Of a DNA stretch of 39,595 bases, positions 3,131 to 39,595 are shown piece after piece; positions within the stretch are counted from its first letter, which is position 1, and every line of letters starts with the position of its first letter. The notes under the pieces are model-generated. The model made no database searches. It was not told where the DNA came from and saw nothing but the letters and a program-made list of their open reading frames with translations. A program made the position numbers and the translations under genes. This DNA is from a phage: sequence record PZ544513.1. One strand, given 5' to 3'.

Positions 3131-3243
3131 GTACCACATCAACACGAAACAACGGTGACGACCAACACTGAAACGGTCTACCTGAAGTCCTCTGACTGAA
3201 GGGAATGCTCTTTAACAATCTGGATAAACTCTTAATGTGCGCC

Positions 3244-3310
3244 GACAGTGATTAACTACAGGGTCTTTGAGTCTACATCTGAAGGCCCTGACTGATAGTC
3301 ACTAGCAACC
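3244..3310 (+). other. Putative RNase III processing hairpin, early-region repeat copy A
   Basis: About 66-nt element CGACAGTGATTAACTACAGGGTC...GGCCCTGACTGATAGTCACTA with imperfect inverted symmetry (AGTGA/TCACT and CAGGG/CCCTG stems with internal loop); three copies, each immediately upstream of an early gene. Confidence 0.5.
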
Positions 3311-3603: not shown

Positions 3604-3658
3604 TGATTAACTACAGGTCGTTAGACTGATAGCGGCCTGACTGATAGTCACTAACACA
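3601..3658 (+). other. Putative RNase III processing hairpin, early-region repeat copy B (diverged)
   Basis: TAGTGATTAACTACAGG...CCTGACTGATAGTCACTAACA shares both flanks with copies A and C; immediately upstream of the ocr homolog. Confidence 0.45.
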
Positions 3659-4422: not shown

Positions 4423-4488
4423 CGACAGTGATTAACTACAGGGTCTTTGAGTCTACATCTGAAGGCCCTGACTGATAGCCACTAACAA
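4423..4488 (+). other. Putative RNase III processing hairpin, early-region repeat copy C
   Basis: Identical to copy A except 2 positions over 66 nt; immediately upstream of the ORF at 4503. Confidence 0.5.
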
Positions 4489-4502
4489 CTGAGAGGACAG
4501 AT

Positions 4503-29458: not shown

Positions 29459-31741
29459 ATGGCTAGTAATATTGAATCAGCTCTGGCTAATCGGACTATG
29501 GGTCGCGGCAGAGCGCCGGGTAAAACTATCGCCGTAAACTATCAAGCAGCCAACGTTCAGGCTCCGACTGGGGACTCCGGGCTGGCTCGTGCATTGACTA
29601 ACTTCGTTGAGTCTGGGACAGGATTGTACAAGCAGTTCAAGGACGATGAGAAGACCAGAGCTGACGAGCGGTCTAACGAGATTATCCGTAAGTTGACACC
29701 TCAGCAGAGACGTGAGGCTATCCAGAACGGCACATTGCTGTATCAGGATGACCCTTACGCTATGGAAGCACTTCGAGTCAAGACTGGTCGTAATGCTGCC
29801 TTTGCCGTAGACGACGAGATTAACGTTAAGATTCAGAATGGTGAGTTCCGCACACGTCAGGAAATGGAAGAATATCGACACCAGCGACTTCAGGATGCCG
29901 CTAAGTCATATGCCGAAGAGGCGGGTATTAACCCTACCGACGAGTTCTTCCAGCGTGGATTCAACGATAACATCACGGACCGAAACATCGCTATCTATGG
30001 GTCTTTCAATAAGTATTTCAGCAAGCAGTCTGAAGAGACAGCAATGTTGAACACTCGTATTGAGATGAACTCATTCCTGAACGATGGGGACCTGATGCGT
30101 TCGCCTGAGTCTGGAAAGACCTTCATGGCCTACCTTCGGGATGGACTAACGACTGCAGCTATCCCTTCGGACCAGCGAGCACGAGAGGTCATTACCCAGA
30201 CGGTACGTGACGCAATCCAGAAGTCTGGAGGCTCAAACTTCCTACAGCAAGTTCGAGGCGAGCGAATCACCCTTAACGGTGTGGATGCTACAGTCGAAGA
30301 GATTGTAGGACCTGATGTCTTCAACGCTGCTATTGTTGAGGCACAGGGCACTGAGTACAAGCTGGTGGCTAAGTATCAGGAAGACTTGGCTTTAGGCGTT
30401 CAGTCTGCGATTCTTCAGGATGACCCGACCATCGGTCTGGCCCAGATTCAGAAACTCAAGGAGCAGAACAACCTGCTTCAACCGGGTGAAGAACTCACGC
30501 CTCAGCGTCAGATGCTTATTAATGCCGAAGCCAGCTTGCTTGAAGCGGTCAAGCGTAAGTCTGCTGAACAGGCGAAGGAGAACACTAAGTTAATCCAGAC
30601 CCAGAACAAGCAACTGGTCATTGACCAAGTGTATCAGCGACGTCTGGCTGGGGACAACGTGTCCACCAACTATGAGGACCTTCCTGTCTCTGACGCTACA
30701 GGTGAGTTCAAGCGTTCAGATATGAACAACTACGCGTCTGCCAAGCTACAGCAGATTGACCAGATGGACATCCCTGAGGCTGCTAAGGACGCTCAGAAGG
30801 TGGCATTGTTAAGAGCTGACACTAACAACGGTCCATTCCGTAATGCCTTCCAGACGCTGACTCAGGACGCTGCTGGTGAGTGGCAAGCTGCGGTCATCCG
30901 TGGACAGTACGACCCAGACAAGATGAAACGCTTCGAGTCTCTTCGTCGTGCCTACACTCAGGACCCTTCAAGTTTCGCTGCTCTGTATCCTGACCAAGCT
31001 CAGTTGTTCTCTACGTTCGACCAGATGGACAAGATGGGTCTGGACCCTCAGACGATGATTGAAGCCGATAAGCAAGCTGCAAGTCAAAGCCGTGAGATGC
31101 GCATGGAGTCAGACAAGGCGTGGCAGGAGTTGAAGAACGACTCTCGGAATAAGGACCTTTCGCGTCTTCCTACGTCTCTGGACGCAAGTGCTCGTAAGGT
31201 CTGGGACTCATGGTACTACCGTACAGGTAACGCTGATGCTGCAACTCAGCAGACTCAACGATGGCTGAATGAAAATACCGTAACGTTCCAGTCTGAAGGT
31301 TCTGACGGTAAGTCCATCGGCATGGTGTCAAAGCACCAGCTTATGGTCGGGGATAACCCAGAGTCGTGGCAGGTTGGTCGAGACATTATCGACACCGCTC
31401 GTAAGCAGCTCATTAAGGCCAACCCTTGGGTAGTGAACTCTCAGTTGTCCGTTGTTGAACAGAACGGCTCTATCTTCCTCCAAGACGCTACAGGGACTAT
31501 TCGTATTCGCTACGATAAAGAACTTGTAGGTAAACTCTACCGCGAACAACAGCAGAAGGCACAAGATGCCGCATACGCTCAGGCAGAACGTGACGCTAAC
31601 AAGCGCGCGCGTATCGTCGGGACTAAAGCTGCTGGTGACAAACGTCGAGCTGACCGAGAGGCCAACATCGAGAAGCGCGGAGGGATGTACAATGACGTCT
31701 CATTGGAGGGTATCGCAAACGTACTAATCGGTAAGGAGTAA
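29459..31741 (+). CDS. 15: Internal virion protein C (T7 gp15 homolog)
   Basis: 760 aa, largely alpha-helical Gln/Ala-rich protein at the conserved position (T7 gp15 is 747 aa). Confidence 0.9.
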   Translation: MASNIESALANRTMGRGRAPGKTIAVNYQAANVQAPTGDSGLARALTNFVESGTGLYKQFKDDEKTRADERSNEIIRKLTPQQRREAIQNGTLLYQDDPYAMEALRVKTGRNAAFAVDDEINVKIQNGEFRTRQEMEEYRHQRLQDAAKSYAEEAGINPTDEFFQRGFNDNITDRNIAIYGSFNKYFSKQSEETAMLNTRIEMNSFLNDGDLMRSPESGKTFMAYLRDGLTTAAIPSDQRAREVITQTVRDAIQKSGGSNFLQQVRGERITLNGVDATVEEIVGPDVFNAAIVEAQGTEYKLVAKYQEDLALGVQSAILQDDPTIGLAQIQKLKEQNNLLQPGEELTPQRQMLINAEASLLEAVKRKSAEQAKENTKLIQTQNKQLVIDQVYQRRLAGDNVSTNYEDLPVSDATGEFKRSDMNNYASAKLQQIDQMDIPEAAKDAQKVALLRADTNNGPFRNAFQTLTQDAAGEWQAAVIRGQYDPDKMKRFESLRRAYTQDPSSFAALYPDQAQLFSTFDQMDKMGLDPQTMIEADKQAASQSREMRMESDKAWQELKNDSRNKDLSRLPTSLDASARKVWDSWYYRTGNADAATQQTQRWLNENTVTFQSEGSDGKSIGMVSKHQLMVGDNPESWQVGRDIIDTARKQLIKANPWVVNSQLSVVEQNGSIFLQDATGTIRIRYDKELVGKLYREQQQKAQDAAYAQAERDANKRARIVGTKAAGDKRRADREANIEKRGGMYNDVSLEGIANVLIGKE

Positions 31742-31745
31742 CATA

Positions 31746-34700
31746 ATGGCGACTCGTGGTATTCGCAATAACAATCCGGGTAACATCCGGGTAAGTAAGG
31801 ACCAATGGGAAGGAATGACTGGAGATGATGGCGCATTCGTCACCTTCGATAGTCCAGAGTCTGGCGTCCGAGCTTTAGGTAAAAACCTGCTGTCCTACGG
31901 TCGCCAAGGTTATGATTCCATCGAGAAGATTATCAACAGATGGGCACCTCCTAACGAGAACGACACTAAGGCTTATATTGACTCAGTGGTGGCTGCAACT
32001 GGTATTCCAGCTACACAGAGTCTCGACCTATCGGACCCTGACACCCTGTCTTCTCTGGCACAAGCTATCAGCTTCCATGAGACAGGCTCACGGTACGACC
32101 CTGAAGTCTATCAGAAGGGAGTCGCACGGGCACTCAACGGCATTAGCCCAAAGACTCCACCAGTAAGCGCTAACGTATTTGACGCACTCACGGAAGGACT
32201 CAAGGCTAAACCTAAAGTAGCTCTGGGTGAGAACCTTCCGACCGCTGCTGGTCTGAACATTGAGGGTCAAGCACCTGAATCTCCCAACGAATCGTTCGGT
32301 GAGATGTTCTATAAGGCTACTGGAGAGACCATGCAGGAGCAAGAGGACCGCTCTACGTGGTTCGGTTTCGGTGCGGCTACAGAAGCTGAAGTGAAGAACT
32401 CTATGGTCGGCGTGGCTATACGAGCTGGTCAGACTGAGGACTCACTGGATGTCATTGGCGATGTGTTCAACCCAACCAGATGGAACAACCATAAGTGGTC
32501 TCGTGAGGAGCTAGACCAGATTCGTAACGCTGGGGTTTTGCCTCAGTATTACGGAGTCATTACTGGTGGCTCTCCTCAGAACCTGACCGAGCTTATTAAC
32601 TTGGCGCTTGAGAACCAGAAGTTGGACCAAGAGAAGGCCAAGGCTGGGACTGGTGCTCAACTGGCGGCTGGTGTGATTGGTGCTGGCGTGGACCCTCTGA
32701 CCTACGTTCCTATTGCTGGGCAGGTAGGTAAAGGTGGTAAGCTAGTCAACAAGATGTTCACTGTGGCTGCTCAGTCTGGTGCTCTGGCTGGGGCATCCGA
32801 GATTGCTCGAACCTCAGTTGCTGGTGGGGACGCTCATGTTGCTGAAGCTATCCTTGGTGGCGCTCTCTTCGGTGGTGGCATGACTGCTATCGCTGATGGA
32901 CTAGGCAGAGCCTTAGGTCGCAACACTAATGAGTTTGCTGGTCCAGCTACACGTTTGGAAGCTCGTGAGACAGCTCGTAACGTTGATGGTCAGGACCTGT
33001 CCCGTCTCCCTATTCAGGAAGGTGAGCAGACCTTTAGTCATCAAGGCGTTAAGTTCGCTGACGTTCCGAATGAGCCGGGAAGTGTACGATTAGAAGACGG
33101 TTCAATCCTGATTGGTGAGAACCCTCTGAACCCTAAGACACGTCAAGTCTTTGACGAAGTGATTGAGCCGGAACGTGCCGCTGCTGGTGTGAACCTTGGT
33201 GGACTTACCGAGATTGGCCTGAAGCTGCTTCGGTCTGAGAACCCTGAGATTCGTGGAGTAGCTGCTGACTTAGTGCGTTCACCTACTGGTATGCAGTCTG
33301 GGGCCTCAGGTAAAATCGGGACAACTGCGTCAGACGTGTTCGAGAGACTTCGTTCTGTGGACCATCGGTTCTACAACGACATCGACGATGCGGTTACTGA
33401 GGCACTAAAGGACCCGTACTTCCAGACTGCATTCTGGCGAGACTCTGGCGCATTCCGTCAGGACATCTACCAGCGTGTGTCTATGGCTATCGAAGATGGT
33501 AGCGGAAACCTGAAGGCTGAACTGACTCCGGGAGAACTGAAAGTCTATGACCTACTGAAGAACCAGTTCGACGCCAAGCGTGAGATGATGGAGAACCCAG
33601 CGATGTTTGGTCGTCCAGACGCTCAGTCTATCTTTCCGGGTAGCCGCTTCAAGGGAACCTACGTCCCTCATGTGTATAGCAAACAGATGAAGGAGCTGTA
33701 CATCAAGGAGCTTGGGAGTCCAGAGGCGTTGCAGGAGGCCATCAAGAAGTCATGGTTGACCAGCTATGCGTCTCGACCTGAAGTCAAGAAACGCGTGGAC
33801 GAGGCACTTTTAGAGGCTGACCCTACGTTGACTCCAGAAGGACTTGCGGCTGCGGTCGATAAGTACGCCAACGATAAGGCTTATGGTATCTCTCACACCG
33901 AGCAGTTCGAGCGTTCATCCGTAATGGAGGAGAACATCAACGGGCTGGTGGGTCTGGAGAACAACAGCTTCCTTGAGGCTCGTAACCTGTTCGATAGCGA
34001 TATGTCAATCGTTCTTCCTAACGGTCAGACCTTCAGTGTCAACAACCTGCGTGAGTGGGACATGGACAAGATTGTCCCGGCCTACAACCGTCGAGTTAAT
34101 GGTGATATTGCTATCATGGCTGGTACAGGCAAGACCACGAAGGAAATGAAGGACTTAGTTGAGACCATGATGAACAAGGCTGGCGATGACGGAAAGTTGA
34201 AAGGTGAAGTATCTACCTTACGTGACACCCTGAAGATTCTCACTGGTCGTGCTCGACGTGATGGTGCTGATGATGCGGCCTTCGCTACCGTGATGCGCAT
34301 GATGACAGACCTATCGTTCTTCGCTAAGAATGCCTACATGGGTGTTCAGAACTTAACGGAGATTGGTGGTATGCTGGCTCGTGGTAACGTTCGTGCACTG
34401 CTACACGGAGTACCGATGTTCCGTGACCTAGCCTTCCGTAACAAGAAGGTCGGGGCCTCGGAGATTAAGGACCTGCATAATGTTATCTTCGGTAAAGAAT
34501 TAGACGACTCAATCCGTCCGTCTAAACAGGATGTTATCGACCGTCTGCGATCTTACAGTGACCTTAGTCGTGGTACAGCTACAGCTCTGGGGACTGCTAA
34601 GTATTACACTGGTGAACTTGTAGTACGCTCTCCGTTCACTAAAGTCCTCAACGGTACGACCAACTACCTGTTAGATGCTGGACGTCAAGGCTTCCTGTCT

Positions 34701-35633
34701 GACATAGTGGAGCATAGCCTGACTGGTAGTAAGCGTAAGTTCGATGACCGCTGGCTGAAGACCGCTGGTATATCTGACGAGCAGTGGAGTGGAATTAAGT
34801 CCCTAATCCGTGAGTCAGTGACTCGTGGGCCAGACGGGAAGTACACCATCAAGGATAAGAAGGCGTTCAGTCAGGACCCAAGGGCTATGGACCTGTGGCG
34901 TATGGGTGACACCATCGCTGACGAGACGTTACTCCGGCCTCATAAGCTGTCAAACATGGACGCCAAGGCTTATGGTCCTCTCGCTAAGACTGTCCTTCAG
35001 TTTAAGAACTTCGTCATCAAGTCTATCAATGGGAGAACCATGCGAACCTTCTATAACGCCACGAAGAACAACAGAGCGATTGACGCTGCACTGTCGACCG
35101 TGATGTCTATGGGTCTGGCTGGTATCTACTACATGGCTCAGGCGCATGTCAAGGCTTATGCTATGCAGGATGGTCGAGACCGTGACTACCTTAAGCAAGC
35201 TCTGGACCCAACGATGATTGGCTATGCGGCCCTGTCCCGTAGTTCACATCTTGGTGGCCCACTTGGGGTAGCTAACATTCTGGGAGGCATCGCTGGATAT
35301 GAGGACACTAAGATGCTCCGTTCGTCTATCCTACCTCGTTCTCCTACAGAGAAGCCTGAGCGTGCCATCGCGTATGGTGCAGCTACAAGTGACCCTGTGA
35401 TGAATGTTGTTGGTAACTTCTTGGAGCAGGTTCCAGCTTTCGGATATGCTGCTAACGTTGGCGCTTCGGCTTACAACTTGGCTGGCTACCTCAAGGCTGA
35501 TACTCGTGTCAACGAGCGTGACTACATGACCGGGATGTATAATACGTTCCGTGAACTGGTTCCGAACGACCCCATTACCCAGAAGCTGCTGCTTGGAACG
35601 TTTGAGGAGCAAGGCATCCACATCAAGGACTAA
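31746..35633 (+). CDS. 16: Internal virion protein D (T7 gp16 homolog), ejection/cell-wall-penetrating protein
   Basis: 1295 aa; long stretches colinear with T7 gp16 (DLVRSPTGMQSGASGK, ENPAMFG, GTYVPHVY, DKAYGISHTEQF, NNSFLEARNLFDSD, RRVNGDIAIMAGTGKTTKE, TNYLLDAGRQG, FSQDPRAMDLWR, NNRAIDAALS). Confidence 0.96.
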   Translation: MATRGIRNNNPGNIRVSKDQWEGMTGDDGAFVTFDSPESGVRALGKNLLSYGRQGYDSIEKIINRWAPPNENDTKAYIDSVVAATGIPATQSLDLSDPDTLSSLAQAISFHETGSRYDPEVYQKGVARALNGISPKTPPVSANVFDALTEGLKAKPKVALGENLPTAAGLNIEGQAPESPNESFGEMFYKATGETMQEQEDRSTWFGFGAATEAEVKNSMVGVAIRAGQTEDSLDVIGDVFNPTRWNNHKWSREELDQIRNAGVLPQYYGVITGGSPQNLTELINLALENQKLDQEKAKAGTGAQLAAGVIGAGVDPLTYVPIAGQVGKGGKLVNKMFTVAAQSGALAGASEIARTSVAGGDAHVAEAILGGALFGGGMTAIADGLGRALGRNTNEFAGPATRLEARETARNVDGQDLSRLPIQEGEQTFSHQGVKFADVPNEPGSVRLEDGSILIGENPLNPKTRQVFDEVIEPERAAAGVNLGGLTEIGLKLLRSENPEIRGVAADLVRSPTGMQSGASGKIGTTASDVFERLRSVDHRFYNDIDDAVTEALKDPYFQTAFWRDSGAFRQDIYQRVSMAIEDGSGNLKAELTPGELKVYDLLKNQFDAKREMMENPAMFGRPDAQSIFPGSRFKGTYVPHVYSKQMKELYIKELGSPEALQEAIKKSWLTSYASRPEVKKRVDEALLEADPTLTPEGLAAAVDKYANDKAYGISHTEQFERSSVMEENINGLVGLENNSFLEARNLFDSDMSIVLPNGQTFSVNNLREWDMDKIVPAYNRRVNGDIAIMAGTGKTTKEMKDLVETMMNKAGDDGKLKGEVSTLRDTLKILTGRARRDGADDAAFATVMRMMTDLSFFAKNAYMGVQNLTEIGGMLARGNVRALLHGVPMFRDLAFRNKKVGASEIKDLHNVIFGKELDDSIRPSKQDVIDRLRSYSDLSRGTATALGTAKYYTGELVVRSPFTKVLNGTTNYLLDAGRQGFLSDIVEHSLTGSKRKFDDRWLKTAGISDEQWSGIKSLIRESVTRGPDGKYTIKDKKAFSQDPRAMDLWRMGDTIADETLLRPHKLSNMDAKAYGPLAKTVLQFKNFVIKSINGRTMRTFYNATKNNRAIDAALSTVMSMGLAGIYYMAQAHVKAYAMQDGRDRDYLKQALDPTMIGYAALSRSSHLGGPLGVANILGGIAGYEDTKMLRSSILPRSPTEKPERAIAYGAATSDPVMNVVGNFLEQVPAFGYAANVGASAYNLAGYLKADTRVNERDYMTGMYNTFRELVPNDPITQKLLLGTFEEQGIHIKD

Positions 35634-35651
35634 ACTATCACTATAGGAAAC
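35629..35651 (+). promoter_or_regulatory. Phage RNAP promoter (phi17-like) CTAAACTATCACTATAGGAAACT
   Basis: Promoter family member overlapping the gene 16 stop. Confidence 0.7.
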
Positions 35652-35697
35652 TGGAGGCGCTACCATAGGTCTCCATTTAAATCACAAAGGAGGCATA

Positions 35698-38229
35698 ATG
35701 TCCACGATTACACAATTCCCTTCAGGAAACACTCAGTACAGGATTGAGTTCGACTACCTAGCCAGAACGTTTGTTGTTGTTACGCTGGTGAATAGCTCTA
35801 ACCCTACCCTGAACCGTGTACTGGAAGTTGGTCGAGATTACCGATTCCTTAATCCAACGATGATTGAGATGTTGGTTGACCAATCAGGTTTCGACATAGT
35901 TCGTATTCACCGTCAGACTGGAACTGACTTAGTGGTAGATTTCAGGAATGGCTCAGTGTTGACAGCTAGTGACCTGACCAATTCAGAGCTTCAGGCTATC
36001 CATATTGCAGAAGAAGGTCGAGACCAAACGGTTGACTTAGCGAAGGAATATGCCGATGCTGCTGGTAGCTCTGCTGGCAACGCTAAGGATAGCGAGGACG
36101 AAGCACGCCGAATCGCTGCGAGTATCAGGGAAGCTGGTCTAATTGGCTATATTACCCGTCGCTCCTTCGAGAAAGGCTACAACGTTACAACATGGAGCGA
36201 GGTCCTGCTATGGGAAGAGGATGGTGATTATTACCGCTGGGATGGTACGCTTCCAAAGAACGTTCCTGCTGGTTCAACTCCTGAAACTTCCGGTGGGATT
36301 GGATTAGGTGCGTGGGTTAGTGTTGGTGATGCTGCTTTAAGAAGTCAGATTTCAAACCCGGAAGGGGCAATACTCTACCCGGAATTGCAGATGGCAAGAT
36401 GGCGTGATGAGGGTGATGTTCGAGGCTGGGGTGCTAAAGGGGATGGTGTAACAGATAGTACGGAGAATATAGCTGCTTCACTAAATTCTCAAAAAGCTGT
36501 CGTAGCATCAGAAGGTGTATTCTCTAGTTCTGGTATTAATAGTAATTACTGTAACTTAGACGGTAGAGGTAGTGGCGTGCTAAGTCACCGTTCCAGTACA
36601 GGTAACTACTTAGTATTTAACAATCCACGTACAGGTCGCTTAAGTAATATTACGGTAGAAAGTAATAAGGCGACTGATACAACTCAGGGACATCAGGTAT
36701 CTCTTGCCGGTGGAAGTGATGTTACTGTAAGTGACGTTAACTTCTCAAACGTTAAAGGTACTGGTTTAAGTTTAATCGCATACCCTAATGATGCGCCACC
36801 TGATGGACTTATGATTAAAGGCATTCGAGGTAGCTATTCCGGATATGCTACTAATAAGGTAGCAGGATGCGTACTTGCTGACTCATCAGTTAACTCCCTC
36901 ATAGATAACGTCATTGCTAAGAACTACCCTCAGTTCGGAGCAGTAGAGTTGAAAGGTACAGCCAGTTACAACATAGTAAGTAATGTTATAGGGGCAGATT
37001 GCCAGCATGTAACTTACAACGGCACTGAAGGGCCAATAGCTCCTTCTAATAACCTTATCAAGGGGGTGATGGCTAATAACCCTAAGTATGCAGCGGTTGT
37101 TGCAGGCAAAGGAAGTACGAACTTAATCTCAGACGTGCTCGTAGATTACTCAACTTCTGATGCTAGGCAGGCTCATGGTGTTACCGTAGAAGGGTCTGAT
37201 AACGTCATAAATAATGTGCTTATGTCAGGATGTGATGGTACTAACTCTTTAGGACAAGGGCAGGCTGCTACAATTGCACGCTTTATAGGTACAGCTAATA
37301 ACAACTATGCGTCTGTATTTCCTAGCTACAGTGCTACAGGTGTTATTACTTTCGAATCCGGCTCTACCCGTAACTTCGTAGAGGTAAAGCACCCTGGAAG
37401 GAGGAACGACCTTCTCAGTTCTGCTAGTACTATTGACGGTGCAGCTACTATTGACGGCACTAATAATAGTAACGTAGTGCACGCACCCGCCTTAGGGCAG
37501 TACATAGGTAGTATGTCAGGTAGGTTCGAATGGAGGATTAAGTCCATGTCACTCCCTTCAGGCGTTCTTACTTCTGCTGATAAGTACAGAATGCTTGGTG
37601 ATGGTGCTGTATCATTAGCTTTAGGTGGGGGTACTTCTTCTCAAGTTCGCCTATTTACTTCTGATGGTACTTCTCGGACAGTGTCCCTAACCAACGGTAA
37701 CGTGCGTCTTTCTACCAGTAGCACAGGCTATTTGCAGTTAGGTGCTGATGCAATGACCCCAGATAGTACTGGTACATACTCATTAGGTTCCGCCAGTCGA
37801 GCATGGTCTGGCGGTTTTACTCAAGCAGCATTCACTGTTACCTCAGATGCTCGGTGTAAAACAGAACCTCTTACTATCTCAGATGCCTTACTGGATGCTT
37901 GGTCTGAAGTTGACTTTGTGCAGTTTCAGTATTTGGATCGTGTTGAGGAGAAGGGTGCAGACTCAGCTAGATGGCACTTTGGCATCATAGCTCAGCGAGC
38001 TAAGGAGGCTTTCGAACGTCACGGTATAGATGCACATCGCTATGGCTTCTTATGCTTCGACAGTTGGGATGATGTATACGAGGAAGATGCCAATGGCTCT
38101 CGTAGACTGATTACACCAGCAGGTTCCCGCTACGGTATTCGTTACGAGGAAGTACTGATATTAGAGGCTGCGTTGATGCGGCGGACTATTAAGCGTATGC
38201 AGGAAGCATTAGCTGTTATGTCTAAGTGA
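35698..38229 (+). CDS. 17: Tail fiber / tailspike: T7 gp17-like N-terminal adaptor, central putative beta-helix enzymatic domain, C-terminal S74-type intramolecular chaperone
   Basis: N-terminal 150 aa colinear with T7 gp17 (F.YLAR.FVVVTL, DYRF, LRAYDL / LTASDL, IHIAEE.RD); C-terminus SDARCKTEP...WHFGIIAQRAKEAF resembles recalled chaperone-of-endosialidase autoproteolytic domains; AT-rich middle. Confidence 0.9.
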   Translation: MSTITQFPSGNTQYRIEFDYLARTFVVVTLVNSSNPTLNRVLEVGRDYRFLNPTMIEMLVDQSGFDIVRIHRQTGTDLVVDFRNGSVLTASDLTNSELQAIHIAEEGRDQTVDLAKEYADAAGSSAGNAKDSEDEARRIAASIREAGLIGYITRRSFEKGYNVTTWSEVLLWEEDGDYYRWDGTLPKNVPAGSTPETSGGIGLGAWVSVGDAALRSQISNPEGAILYPELQMARWRDEGDVRGWGAKGDGVTDSTENIAASLNSQKAVVASEGVFSSSGINSNYCNLDGRGSGVLSHRSSTGNYLVFNNPRTGRLSNITVESNKATDTTQGHQVSLAGGSDVTVSDVNFSNVKGTGLSLIAYPNDAPPDGLMIKGIRGSYSGYATNKVAGCVLADSSVNSLIDNVIAKNYPQFGAVELKGTASYNIVSNVIGADCQHVTYNGTEGPIAPSNNLIKGVMANNPKYAAVVAGKGSTNLISDVLVDYSTSDARQAHGVTVEGSDNVINNVLMSGCDGTNSLGQGQAATIARFIGTANNNYASVFPSYSATGVITFESGSTRNFVEVKHPGRRNDLLSSASTIDGAATIDGTNNSNVVHAPALGQYIGSMSGRFEWRIKSMSLPSGVLTSADKYRMLGDGAVSLALGGGTSSQVRLFTSDGTSRTVSLTNGNVRLSTSSTGYLQLGADAMTPDSTGTYSLGSASRAWSGGFTQAAFTVTSDARCKTEPLTISDALLDAWSEVDFVQFQYLDRVEEKGADSARWHFGIIAQRAKEAFERHGIDAHRYGFLCFDSWDDVYEEDANGSRRLITPAGSRYGIRYEEVLILEAALMRRTIKRMQEALAVMSK

Positions 38230-38444
38230 GTAATACTGGTACGGTATTTTCGCACAATGAAATCGTTGAACACACTGACGAGGAGGGTAATGTCACTACT
38301 ACGGAAGAACCTGTATACACCGAGGTGGTTATTCACGAAGAGGGTGAGGAGTGGGGGGTGTTCGGCCTGACGGAATTTTCTTTGCTGAAGCCGCTTATCA
38401 GAGAAGAAACTGGAAAGAATCGAAGCCAGACTTTCTGCTCTTGA
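38226..38444 (+). CDS. Hypothetical acidic protein (72 aa, GTG start); doubtful
   Basis: GTG overlaps the gene 17 stop (GTGA); Glu-rich; no RBS; overlaps another candidate ORF (38351..38569). Confidence 0.25.
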   Translation: MSNTGTVFSHNEIVEHTDEEGNVTTTEEPVYTEVVIHEEGEEWGVFGLTEFSLLKPLIREETGKNRSQTFCS

Positions 38445-38565
38445 ACAGAAGTAATAAACAAAATCACTTTGCCATTAGGTTGGTGGGGGTAGAGACTAAC
38501 TACACGCTAACCAACGTATGTAACAACTTTGGGTCACGGACGACCCGCTTTAAACTGGAGGTTTT

Positions 38566-38760
38566 ATGATTGAGTTAGACTTCAAGAATGAGGTCCTTAA
38601 AGCCTCTCCTATCGTCGGGACCGCTGCGGCTGATGGTGCCAGTCGGTTCTTCTTCGGACTTACACTGAACGAATGGTTCTACGTTGCAGCTATCGCGTAC
38701 ACCGTTGTCCAGATTGGTGTGCTAGTCTACAAAACGATTAAAGGAGGTGGTAAAACATGA
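38566..38760 (+). CDS. 17.5: Type II holin (T7 gp17.5 homolog)
   Basis: ASPIVGTAAADGASRFFFGLTLNEWFYVAAIAYTVVQIG is near-identical to recalled T7 gp17.5; RBS CTGGAGG. Confidence 0.93.
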   Translation: MIELDFKNEVLKASPIVGTAAADGASRFFFGLTLNEWFYVAAIAYTVVQIGVLVYKTIKGGGKT

Positions 38761-39020
38761 CGCAGATGGACTTAGAGAAGTTCCTCTTGATGCTTGATAC
38801 TGAACGTGCTAGACTCATGCTGCAAGACCTGCGGGATGACTCTAAGCGTTCACCTCAGCTTTACAACGCCATTGAGAAGCTACTGGCTCGTCACAACTTC
38901 GTGCTAAGTAAGGTGTCTGTGGACGAGAAGACGCTGGCTGATATGGAGGCCCTGAACGCAGAGTACGATAAGGTGCTTTCAGCGACTGAGGATAATGACA
39001 CCGGGTATGGCGTTCAATAA
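38757..39020 (+). CDS. 18: Small terminase subunit (T7 gp18 homolog)
   Basis: 87 aa; LLMLDTERARLMLQDLRDDSKRSPQLYNAIEKLLARHNF aligns with recalled T7 gp18 (FLEMLDTAMAQRMLADLSDHERRSPQLYNAIDKLLDRHKF). Confidence 0.93.
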   Translation: MTQMDLEKFLLMLDTERARLMLQDLRDDSKRSPQLYNAIEKLLARHNFVLSKVSVDEKTLADMEALNAEYDKVLSATEDNDTGYGVQ

Positions 39021-39023
39021 GTG

Positions 39024-39066
39024 TTAGACTCAAGGTCATCGTCAGGTGGCCTTTATGGTTAACACT
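39024..39066 (+). other. Conserved leader hairpin AGACTCAAGGTCA-loop-TGGCCTT (putative RNase III site, R18.5-like position)
   Basis: Third copy of the hairpin family, between gene 18 and the spanin gene. Confidence 0.45.
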
Positions 39067-39116
39067 AACTAGTGGAGGAGGCTCTACGTGAAATCTGATA
39101 AACCGGGAGGGCAACT

Positions 39117-39566
39117 ATGCTCGAATTTTTAAAGAGAGCGGCTCCGTGGGTACTTGCAGCAGTGATGTTTGCTGGTGGCTACCACACCGCTAACAATAAG
39201 TGGGAGGCTAAGGTCAATGAAGAATACACCTCGAATCTTAAGGCATCGGAAGATACAAGGCTTGCTGTCCAAGCTGAAGTCAACAAAGTGTCCAAACGGT
39301 TTCAGGACGAAATGTCCTCGCTGGAAGGCAGCACTGATAGGATTATTGCTGACCTTCAGTCTGACAATAAGCGGTTGCGCATCCGAGTCAAACCAACGAG
39401 TGGAACCACGCAAAGTGACGGTCGATGCTTCATTGATGGTTACGCCGAACTTGACGAACGAGATGCTAAACGTCTTATCGCCATCGGAGTGAAAGGAGAC
39501 AAGTGGATTAAGGCCCTTCAAGACACTGTGAGAGCCTTACAGCAAGAGAAGGAGGTGACGCATTGA
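39117..39566 (+). CDS. 18.5: i-spanin Rz (T7 gp18.5 homolog)
   Basis: 149 aa; N-terminal transmembrane segment AAPWVLAAVMFAGGY followed by charged coiled-coil-like periplasmic domain; RBS GGGAGGG. Confidence 0.88.
   Translation: MLEFLKRAAPWVLAAVMFAGGYHTANNKWEAKVNEEYTSNLKASEDTRLAVQAEVNKVSKRFQDEMSSLEGSTDRIIADLQSDNKRLRIRVKPTSGTTQSDGRCFIDGYAELDERDAKRLIAIGVKGDKWIKALQDTVRALQQEKEVTH
39214..39492 (+). CDS. Putative o-spanin Rz1 (gp18.7-like) embedded in the +1 frame of Rz; start codon uncertain
   Basis: Embedded frame encodes ...RWKAALIGLLLTFSLTISGC with a lipobox (ISGC) and Cys at about 39376; no canonical start immediately upstream of the signal peptide, so the N-terminus is unresolved. Confidence 0.3.
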   Translation, partial: SMKNTPRILRHRKIQGLLSKLKSTKCPNGFRTKCPRWKAALIGLLLTFSLTISGCASESNQRVEPRKVTVDASLMVTPNLTNEMLNVLSPSE

Positions 39567-39595
39567 GTAAAGACTTAGTGGCGCGTCAGGCGCTA
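39563..39595 (+). CDS. 19: Large terminase subunit (gp19) 5-prime end; continues at window position 1
   Basis: TTG at 39563 preceded by GAAGGAGG (39548-39555); frame continues without stop to the window end and joins the frame of the ORF at 1..1731, giving [21 protein letters not shown]... which aligns with the recalled T7 gp19 N-terminus. Confidence 0.6.
   Translation, partial: MSKDLVARQAL

Follow-up and report, generated by a model that had tools for sequence, protein, structure and literature searches.

The gene gp17 of this phage very probably (a probability of roughly 0.93) codes for the one receptor-binding tailspike of a T7-type phage from the K1F-like group (Kayfunavirus) with specificity for E. 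coli bearing the K5 capsule. Its domain content, the sequence identities, the breakpoints, the base composition and a gene relic downstream of it were observed directly in the window, by which we mean the whole stretch of 39,595 nucleotides that was analysed. The architecture of gp17 has already been described and structurally solved, is present in many sequenced phages, and is ordinary and already explained; a K5 lyase tailspike, a beta-helix fold, a self-cleaving chaperone and modular exchange are textbook receptor-binding-protein mosaicism and have little discovery value. The features of the locus are listed below, with the evidence used for them in brackets.

35629..35648 (+), predicted late phage-RNA-polymerase promoter 5' of gp17, CTAAACTATCACTATAGGAA (read directly)
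35678-35684, AAGGAGG ribosome-binding site 3' of the gp17 promoter
35698..38229 (+), gp17 tailspike precursor, 843 aa, 90.1 kDa (ORF list, 9vvr_A, PHROG 14895)
35698..36330 (+), conserved virion anchor, aa 1-211 (PF03906, PF18668, Kayfunavirus comparison)
36331..36456 (+), neck and left recombination zone, aa 212-253 (DNA alignment, blastn ends, sliding identity)
36457..37842 (+), K5 capsular polysaccharide (heparosan) lyase body, aa 254-715 (identity to 2x3h and K1-5 gp46)
37843..38229 (+), C-terminal intramolecular chaperone / Peptidase_S74, aa 716-843, 14.8 kDa, with the stop codon (PF13884)
38240..38454 (+), K1F-type endosialidase relic (pseudogene), last 71 codons and stop (blastn, alignments, three-frame translation)

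The ORF proposed by the sequence-only reading was recomputed at the same coordinates and strand and yields 843 aa, and PHROG 14895 'tail spike protein' matches it over aa 209-843 with 1304.7 bits. The genes around the cassette follow the T7-type order gp16 - gp17 - holin - gp18 - gp18.5, which is the Kayfunavirus context. The element upstream of gp17 belongs to a promoter-like family, (T/A)AACTATCACTATAGG, of which at least 11 copies are found across the window; we take it to be a promoter from its likeness to T7-type promoters. A scan of positions 35500-38800 for sigma-70 promoters and intrinsic terminators gave counts no higher than the shuffled expectation.

The N-terminal part of gp17 contains the Phage_T7_tail domain (PF03906, Pfam) at aa 10-115 (57.2 bits, cut-off 25.2, E=2e-15), followed by a charged linker and by a second Pfam domain, Tail_spike_N (PF18668), at aa 156-211 (E=1e-18). 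The solved N-terminal chains of T7 gp17 (7boz, 8dsp and 8e4g) match aa 6-116. The T7 adaptor previously assigned to the first 150 aa or so is therefore present, but its length was misjudged, as the conserved anchor covers aa 1-211, or extends to aa 253 when compared to K1F, and the Tail_spike_N domain inside it had been overlooked. No T7 fibre match was found past aa 116, in agreement with the claim that the rest of gp17 is unrelated to the T7 fibre. The window protein thus has the N-terminal tail-attachment domain of the T7 gp17 tail fibre (aa 6-116) but not its shaft, pyramid and tip domain, and a predicted enzymatic spike stands in the place of the LPS-binding fibre. The same anchor is found at 93-97% identity in Kayfunaviruses with other spikes (Escherichia, Salmonella, Enterobacter, Klebsiella, Hafnia and Providencia), in which the homology to the window gp17 ends at gene nt 633-657.

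The body of the protein was assigned by comparison with the crystallised KflA (PDB 2x3h, 'K5 LYASE'), which matches gp17 with E=4.4e-293. Over aa 242-716 the identity is 96.0%; from aa 276 it rises to 98.2%, with 8 substitutions up to aa 716 (H332Q, L357F, V388A, G521R, A523T, N589S, L642V and S695A). Residue numbers in gp17 are those of KflA plus 211. The full-length structure 9vvr_A, 'Tail spike protein', is 95.5% identical across all 843 gp17 residues (no publication that cites PDB 9VVR turned up in a literature search), and the lyase DNA is 96.5% identical to K1-5 gp46 'K5 lyase'. KflA is a trimer, in which a lyase part built as a single-stranded beta-helix precedes a triple-stranded beta-helix (PMC8822698; PMC3594737). 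Judging from its identity to 2x3h and 9vvr, gp17 would form a right-handed parallel beta-helix trimer with an intertwined triple-stranded region, the lyase body consisting of the right-handed beta-helix and then of the C-terminal intertwined stalk. The Pfam pectate-lyase-like match is weak by itself (E=0.0081, below cut-off), and it is the identity to KflA that upholds the beta-helix depolymerase predicted earlier. In aa 254-715, 42.2% of the residues are Gly, Ser, Asn or Thr; the other long ORFs of the window have 24.2%. This richness had been attributed to repeats, but Tandem Repeats Finder returned zero repeats over 35600-38600, so that the 'repeats' are compositional and structural rather than sequence repeats.

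The glycan-degrading module that had been proposed to target a capsule or an O-antigen is supported by these identities, and its predicted target can be narrowed to one capsule. The comparison supports a lyase acting by beta-elimination, not a hydrolase, and specifically the K5 (heparosan) capsule as its likely substrate. The K5-lyase fold might nevertheless have been kept while the specificity drifted, or the spike might bind without cleaving. The 8 body substitutions leave some room for this, as do a patch at 37598-37997, which is recombinant between K5-lyase alleles and nearer to K1-5 than to the K5-lyase Kayfunavirus relatives, and the host range of the nearest phages, which amounts to 13-61% of UPEC panels (PMC8614997). 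However, the enzyme to which the body is 98% identical has been shown to act as a K5 lyase, the exchanged residues are conservative and spread out, and the same allele family is found in K5-specific phages of three groups, which makes such a change highly improbable.

The C-terminus had been described as resembling a self-cleaving chaperone from about 37840 to 38229, and Peptidase_S74 (PF13884, Pfam) indeed begins at nt 37843 (aa 716-776, 54 bits against a gathering cut-off of 22, E=2.1e-14). The solved chaperone domains 3gud, 3gw6, 7y5s, 6eu4 and 4uw8 also match the gp17 C-terminus, with E=2e-23 to 9e-11. An alignment with endoNF (S911/K916) and K1-5 endoNE shows no variation at Thr715, Ser716 and Lys721. 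Catalytic roles have been described for the endoNF dyad Ser911/Lys916 (PMC8326128), with a parallel in T5 pb1 (PMC4690869), and by this likeness Ser716 would be the nucleophile and Lys721 the general base. The 2x3h chain terminates in ...FTVTS, its last residue being gp17 Ser716, and K1-5 ORF46, of 67 kDa, has a mature form of 52 kDa according to a review table (PMC5380687), both being indirect signs that the domain is released by autoproteolysis. Arg701, the sole nearby Arg, lies 15 residues before Ser716; the folding sensor of endoNF, Arg897, lies 14 residues before its Ser, and the two are one column apart in both HMMER and MAFFT alignments.

At least 80% of gp17 is found at ~95-98% identity in 16 phage records, nearly all of them Kayfunavirus or 40-kb Escherichia phages, and 14 of them carry the whole gene. 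Loose et al. 2021 (PMC8614997) described Kayfunaviruses that share 99.3-99.4% identity with the window over 25 kb, and gave CDS 002 the name 'K5 lyase'. The architecture and length of gp17 are also those of PDB 9vvr and of the K5-lyase Kayfunaviruses vB_EcoP-22664UKE3-2, 101120B2, PM129-139, AN24P4, AN17P1, ZG49, IME177 and R1, whose genes are likewise located between gp16 and the holin gene (94.9-98.1% nt identity) and show allelic differences only. The K5 lyase genes of K1-5, K5 and Vectrevirus match gp17 gene nt 762-2517 at 97-98%. KflA of coliphage K5A and gp46 of K1-5 (Vectrevirus, SP6-like) are the same gene, with beta-helix, stalk and S74 chaperone (96.5-97.8% nt identity over 36451-38233, 98.2% aa identity from aa 276). 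However, they have 632 aa, and their short N-terminus (~40 aa) attaches to an adaptor that is a protein of its own (PMC5380687), whereas in the window a gp17 anchor of the T7/K1F type, 253 aa long, forms one chain with the lyase body. There are also differences in the last five codons and in the 3' flank.

Two other phage groups share parts of the gene. K1F gp17 (endoNF) belongs to the same genus and occupies the same locus, its N-terminal 253 aa are 95-96% identical at the nt level, and it has the same succession of anchor, capsule depolymerase and S74 chaperone with a Ser/Lys dyad. Its distal module is a K1 polysialic-acid hydrolase, for 1064 aa in total, instead of the K5 heparosan lyase predicted here, and the two chaperone domains are merely ~35% identical. 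The K5 lyase of the Gamaleyaviruses UE-S5b, UE-M3 and UE-M6 (Schitoviridae, N4-like) has a body of 91.8% nt identity, and both the window neck at 36391-36456 and the 16 nt past the stop codon are of the Gamaleyavirus type, the 3' flank in UE-S5b having GTAATACTGGTACGGT in common with the window. The Gamaleyavirus gene differs in its N-terminal docking region and is preceded by an endosialidase gene; its 74-kb genome belongs to a different phage family.

The ends of these homologies are sharp and support horizontal acquisition of the distal module, as had been suggested. By blastn, homology to K1F covers 32032-36456 at 95.1%, stops, and resumes over 38240-39595 at 94.9%, and homology to the K5 lyase gp46 of K1-5 covers 36451-38233. 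The breakpoints relative to K1F are therefore at ~36391-36456 on the left and ~38233-38240 on the right. In the neck, the window equals K1F up to ~36390 and the K5 lyase of the Gamaleyavirus UE-S5b from ~36391, and a 23-nt block at 36434-36456 (..GGTGCTAAAGGGGATGGTGT, encoding GAKGDG) is common to K1F, UE-S5b and the window. The right junction falls on a 6-nt microhomology, TACGGT (38240-38245). The module start initially placed at 36250 lies ~80-200 nt upstream of the actual module boundaries. A search with gp17 across all complete E. coli genomes, for a prophage or an ElmA-like chromosomal origin, gave no match.

The base composition changes at about the same place. The cassette (36457-38239) has a GC content of 0.447, against 0.499 for the whole window, and is the lowest-GC span of its length (non-overlapping 1783-nt windows: minimum 0.4498, mean 0.499, sd 0.020); the lyase body has 0.44. 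The distal DNA is thus AT-richer, as had been seen by eye, and the computed composition is not uniform across the gene, but the onset is not at 36300: in 300-nt windows, GC goes from 0.50 (36100-36399) to 0.41 (36500-36799), the drop beginning at ~36400-36500. The value of the cassette is close to those of the K1-5 (0.445) and UE-S5b (0.434) flanks and unlike the 0.499 of the window genome. A low distal GC could also be a mere effect of a beta-helix rich in Asn, Ser, Thr and Gly, with no transfer involved, as these residues amount to 42% in aa 254-715 and the Asn codons (AAY) and Ser AGY codons are AT-rich. However, GC at third positions, which are largely unconstrained, is also low (0.345 in the cassette; gp16 has 0.532 and the N-terminal part of gp17 has 0.423), and the same DNA is found with sharp breakpoints in Vectrevirus, of another subfamily, at 96-98% identity and in Gamaleyavirus (Schitoviridae), of another family, at 92%. 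An origin of the low GC in amino-acid composition only is accordingly exceedingly improbable, and horizontal acquisition is retained. The first 200 nt of gp17 are likewise lowish in GC (0.44-0.45).

The point at which K1F homology resumes, 38240, lies within K1F gp17, 214 nt before its stop codon. The three-frame translation of this relic, TVFSHNEIVEHTDEEGNVTTTEEPVYTEVVIHEEGEEWGV / VRPDGIFFAEAAYQRR / KLERIEARLSALEQK*, matches the K1F gp17 C-terminus, with frameshifts of +2 in the G-run 38353-38358 and of -1 in the A-run 38407-38409. Both frameshifts, being in homopolymer runs, could be sequencing errors, which would leave the status of the relic as a 5'-truncated fragment unchanged. An ORF at 38226-38444 (72 aa, with a GTG start overlapping the gp17 stop) was rejected as a gene, as it corresponds to the first reading frame of the relic continued past the first frameshift. 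The relic is complete in the window and in 101120B2, and partly or mostly deleted in 22664UKE3-2, SHAK7854, ZG49, PDP21P1 and R1. Its K1F-type endosialidase sequence indicates that the K5 lyase cassette probably replaced an endosialidase in place, of which a 3' fragment persists downstream.

The swap could have taken place in reverse, the K5-lyase form being ancestral in Kayfunavirus and the endosialidase having been gained later by K1F-type phages. The distal part of K1F gp17 (GC 0.446) is as AT-rich as the K5 cassette (0.447) and both look foreign against a backbone of 0.49-0.50, so that composition alone gives no direction. The relic does, however: in K5-lyase phages the lyase stop is immediately followed by a 5'-truncated, frameshifted endosialidase 3' end, which is collinear with the K1F intergenic region between gp17 and the holin gene and varies in its stage of deletion among K5-lyase Kayfunaviruses, as expected of decaying leftover DNA, whereas a K5-lyase remnant is absent from the same K1F interval in the alignment. 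The reverse order is therefore very unlikely, and replacement of the endosialidase by the K5 lyase remains the favoured course. The distal cassette (~36391/36457 to 38239) would have entered a K1F-like genome and displaced the endosialidase module, crossing over in the conserved neck on the left and, on the right, within the endosialidase chaperone domain at the 6-nt microhomology, so that the 215-nt relic stayed behind.

The activity of the enzyme, its self-cleavage, the stoichiometry and the sequence of events are inferred from characterised proteins that are nearly identical. Late transcription of gp17 would start from its own phage promoter (35629-35648), and the C-terminal S74 chaperone domain would guide the 90-kDa protomer into trimers. 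Once the stalk is folded, the Ser716/Lys721 dyad would cut the chain at Thr715/Ser716, releasing the 14.8-kDa chaperone and leaving a stable mature subunit of 75 kDa. The anchor (aa 1-211) would dock the trimer on the tail, presumably with six trimers per virion as in T7 gp17. The beta-helix body would then bind the K5 capsule (heparosan, GlcA-beta1,4-GlcNAc-alpha1,4) and cleave it by beta-elimination, allowing the phage to tunnel through to the outer membrane. In practice, this predicts a phage specific for K5-capsulated E. coli, such as many UPEC strains and Nissle 1917, and the naturally used junctions at aa 211/212, aa 232-253 and Thr715/Ser716 could guide tailspike engineering.

Live endosialidase genes in Kayfunavirus and Gamaleyavirus phages still have 96-99% identity to the relic, which could therefore serve as a ready homology arm. 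With odds that we put somewhat below even, the relic may be an undescribed molecular fossil that fixes both the K1-to-K5 direction and a double-crossover mechanism (neck on the left, TACGGT on the right) and that could act as an arm for a swap back. If so, together with the shared N-terminal anchor it would permit a return to K1 specificity during co-infection. As the trace of a probable switch from K1 to K5, the relic is clean and can be dated. A comparable leftover is the truncated kflA (ORF46) beside an active depolymerase in phage K1E, a trace of a serotype switch according to Clarke et al. 2000, as reported in PMC5380687. K1E, an SP6-like phage, gained an endosialidase, after which its K5 lyase was truncated, whereas the window is T7-like and its endosialidase appears to have been truncated by the K5 lyase.

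The gp17 feature falls within a single ORF of 843 aa, surrounded by genes in a T7-like order, with the large terminase gene at the start of the window:

31746-35633, gp16, internal virion protein of 1295 aa, upstream of gp17 (counterpart in relatives annotated as lytic transglycosylase)
35698-38229, + strand, gp17, tailspike gene
38566-38760, holin of 64 aa, downstream of gp17
38757-39020, gp18, downstream of gp17
39117-39566, gp18.5 spanin, downstream of gp17

Over its full length the gp17 product is 95.5% identical (38 differences) to PDB 9vvr_A, a 'Tail spike protein' of 843 aa, and its residues 242-716 are 96.0% identical to the K5 lyase KflA (PDB 2x3h), rising to 98.2% from aa 276. The glycan-degrading beta-helix module against a capsule or O-antigen that had been proposed from the sequence alone is thus borne out and can be specified as a K5 capsule lyase, although the pectate-lyase-like Pfam match at aa 241-356 is weak. 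KflA is described as a beta-helical lyase that forms trimers, its central helix being followed by a triple-stranded beta-helix, and its substrate is the K5 capsule, heparosan (PMC8822698, PMC3594737, PMC6966330). In the phage collection, at least 80% of the gp17 gene is found in 16 records (the whole gene in 14) at ~95-98% identity. Other K5 lyase genes match parts of it: those of K5, K1-5 and further Vectreviruses align over nt 762-2517 (97-98%), and those of the Gamaleyaviruses UE-S5b, UE-M3 and UE-M6, which are N4-like, over nt 615-2532 (~92%). A search of 5,426 complete E. coli genomes gave no match to the gene, in line with its occurrence in strictly lytic phages. The gp17 coding sequences of the closest phages are already named 'K5 lyase' (PMC8614997). 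Both the protein family, with its solved structures, and the phage genus to which gp17 belongs are known. In Escherichia phage ZG49 (NC_047777, 4001-7241), two neighbouring coding sequences are annotated 'tail spike'; blastn showed that window 37037-37746 is present there twice in tandem, splitting the K5 lyase gene, either through genuine duplication or through an error of assembly.

The N-terminus carries the T7-type anchor, as supposed, with Phage_T7_tail at aa 10-115 (Pfam, E=2e-15) and solved T7 gp17 N-terminal chains matching aa 6-116. It is, however, longer than the ~150 aa first assigned to it, as a Tail_spike_N domain at aa 156-211 (Pfam, E=1e-18) had been overlooked. Among Kayfunaviruses of Salmonella, Enterobacter, Klebsiella, Hafnia and Providencia, which bear other spikes, homology is limited to nt 1 to 633-657 of the gene and stops where this domain ends; this puts the conserved anchor at aa 1-211. 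Judged from these alignments, the exchangeable unit of gp17 begins at aa 212-253.

The joints of this unit were mapped by blastn of window 31000-39595. Homology to K1F, a Kayfunavirus whose gp17 is the endosialidase endoNF, covers 32032-36456 (95.1%) and 38240-39595 (94.9%), and K1-5 gp46, also a K5 lyase, covers 36451-38233 at 96.5%. On the left, the window is identical to K1F until ~36390 and follows a UE-S5b-type K5 lyase from ~36391 (98% in 36398-36517 windows); a 23-nt block at 36434-36456, encoding GAKGDG, is common to all sequences compared at this joint. On the right, the sequence reads GTAATACTGGTACGGT after the Gamaleyavirus K5 lyase gene, TACGGTATTTTC within K1F gp17 and GTAATACTGGTACGGTATTTTC in the window, and the crossover thus sits on a 6-nt microhomology, TACGGT. 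Within the cassette, 37598-37997 (aa 634-767) shows 6-12 differences per 100 nt from the nearest Kayfunavirus relatives but only 0-5 from K1-5 gp46, which points to gene conversion involving K5-lyase alleles from more than one phage genus.

GC content in 300-nt windows drops from 0.50 (36100-36399) to 0.41 (36500-36799), so that the AT-rich shift placed at ~36300 is real, with slightly displaced boundaries. Segment 36457-38239 has a GC content of 0.447 (genome, 0.499), below every same-length non-overlapping window, and a third-position GC of 0.345, versus 0.532 in gp16. Gly, Ser, Asn and Thr make up 42% of aa 254-715, versus 24% in other long ORFs; the proposed richness in these residues therefore holds, but no repeats were found at the sequence level in the gp17 region. 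The flanking DNA in the K1-5 (0.445) and UE-S5b (0.434) genomes equals the cassette in GC content, and the K1F gp17 endosialidase portion is as low (0.446); AT-richness is thus common to these mobile distal modules.

The K1F homology resuming at 38240 begins not after K1F gp17 but within that gene, 214 nt short of the stop codon. Three-frame translation from 38226 recovers the whole K1F gp17 C-terminus in three pieces, one per frame, TVFSHNEIVEHTDEEGNVTTTEEPVYTEVVIHEEGEEWGV, VRPDGIFFAEAAYQRR and KLERIEARLSALEQK*, the frame changing by +2 within the G-run 38353-38358 and by -1 within the A-run 38407-38409. The close relative 101120B2 has the same fragment with different homopolymer changes, in 22664UKE3-2 and SHAK7854 the stretch 38240-38408 is deleted between two ACTGG motifs, and roughly one third of the interval is all that remains in ZG49, PDP21P1 and R1. 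No K5-lyase remnant was found in the corresponding K1F interval. These sequences are most simply read as the in-place replacement of the endosialidase module in a K1F-like ancestor by a K5 lyase cassette flanked by Gamaleyavirus-like sequence. Phage K1E is the mirror case, having kept a truncated kflA after endosialidase gain (PMC5380687), whereas the window keeps a piece of endosialidase. The relic and the mapped junctions make a neat example, not a new finding.

Two 72-aa GTG-initiated ORFs listed by the ORF finder (38226-38444 and 38351-38569) are two frames of the relic plus intergenic sequence, and likely annotation artefacts. In one relative, a 55-aa 'tail fiber protein' is annotated in this fragment.

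At the C-terminus, Peptidase_S74 was found at aa 716-776 (Pfam, E=2.1e-14), starting at nt 37843, 3 bases from the ~37840 predicted for an S74-type chaperone. The chain of PDB 2x3h ends in FTVTS, exactly at Ser716. In an alignment of gp17, K1-5 gp46, K1F endoNF and K1-5 endoNE, Thr715, Ser716 and Lys721 are invariant and match the cleavage site and Ser911/Lys916 dyad of endoNF (PMC8326128); the endoNF folding-sensor Arg897 aligns one position off Arg701, the sole candidate in gp17. The same cleavage mechanism has been proposed for T5 pb1 (PMC4690869). Cleavage of the 90.1-kDa precursor is computed to yield a 75.3-kDa mature chain and a 14.8-kDa fragment; for the 632-aa homologue, a review table gives 67 kDa, and 52 kDa once mature (PMC5380687). 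The sequence-only reading was upheld in all three testable respects and sharpened in four: a K5 capsule lyase, a two-domain anchor of 211-253 residues, defined breakpoints and a surviving relic of the displaced endosialidase.

Directly upstream of gp17, a phage promoter motif, CTAAACTATCACTATAGG, lies at 35629-35648 and an AAGGAGG ribosome-binding site precedes the ATG. The motif family, with consensus (T/A)AACTATCACT(A/G)TAGG, has at least 11 copies in the window and probably represents the promoters read by the phage RNA polymerase; the interval separating gp17 from the holin gene contains no copy.

Approximate starts of promoter-motif copies in the window
1827, 5479, 8800, 10667, 11632, 14006, 19760, 22581, 23561, 28344, 35630

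gp17 would be expressed from these upstream signals. By analogy with near-identical, experimentally characterised proteins, the precursor would then trimerise with the aid of the S74 domain, which would remove itself; the anchor would dock the spike onto the tail, as in T7 and K1F, and the beta-helix would bind heparosan and cleave it by beta-elimination, opening a path through the K5 capsule.

The first 25 kb of the window are 99.3-99.4% identical to Kayfunaviruses vB_EcoP-PM129/131/137/139, 22664UKE3-2 and 101120B2; judged by this identity and the gene layout, the window is a complete K1F-like phage genome in rotated form. A 149-nt sequence occurs in two perfect head-to-tail copies at 2438-2586 and 2588-2736, separated by 1 base, which are 92.7-94.6% identical to the 178-nt direct terminal repeat present at both K1F ends. 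The window therefore looks like a rotated linear genome including both terminal repeats, in which rotation put the terminase gene first and the physical ends would lie at ~2586/2588. In the closest relatives, 22664UKE3-2 and 101120B2, gp18.5 and the large terminase gene are separated by a gene of 438 nt for an HNH homing endonuclease, and TerL has 588 aa. The window lacks this HNH insertion: its gap (39567-39595 joined to 1) is only 29 nt and its TerL has 576 aa, both as in K1F. A direct repeat of 67 nt (97% identical) is found in the early region at 3243-3309 and 4423-4489, spaced by 1180 nt, and its 3' part (CCTGACTGATAGTCACTA) recurs as a shorter third copy at 3636-3656.
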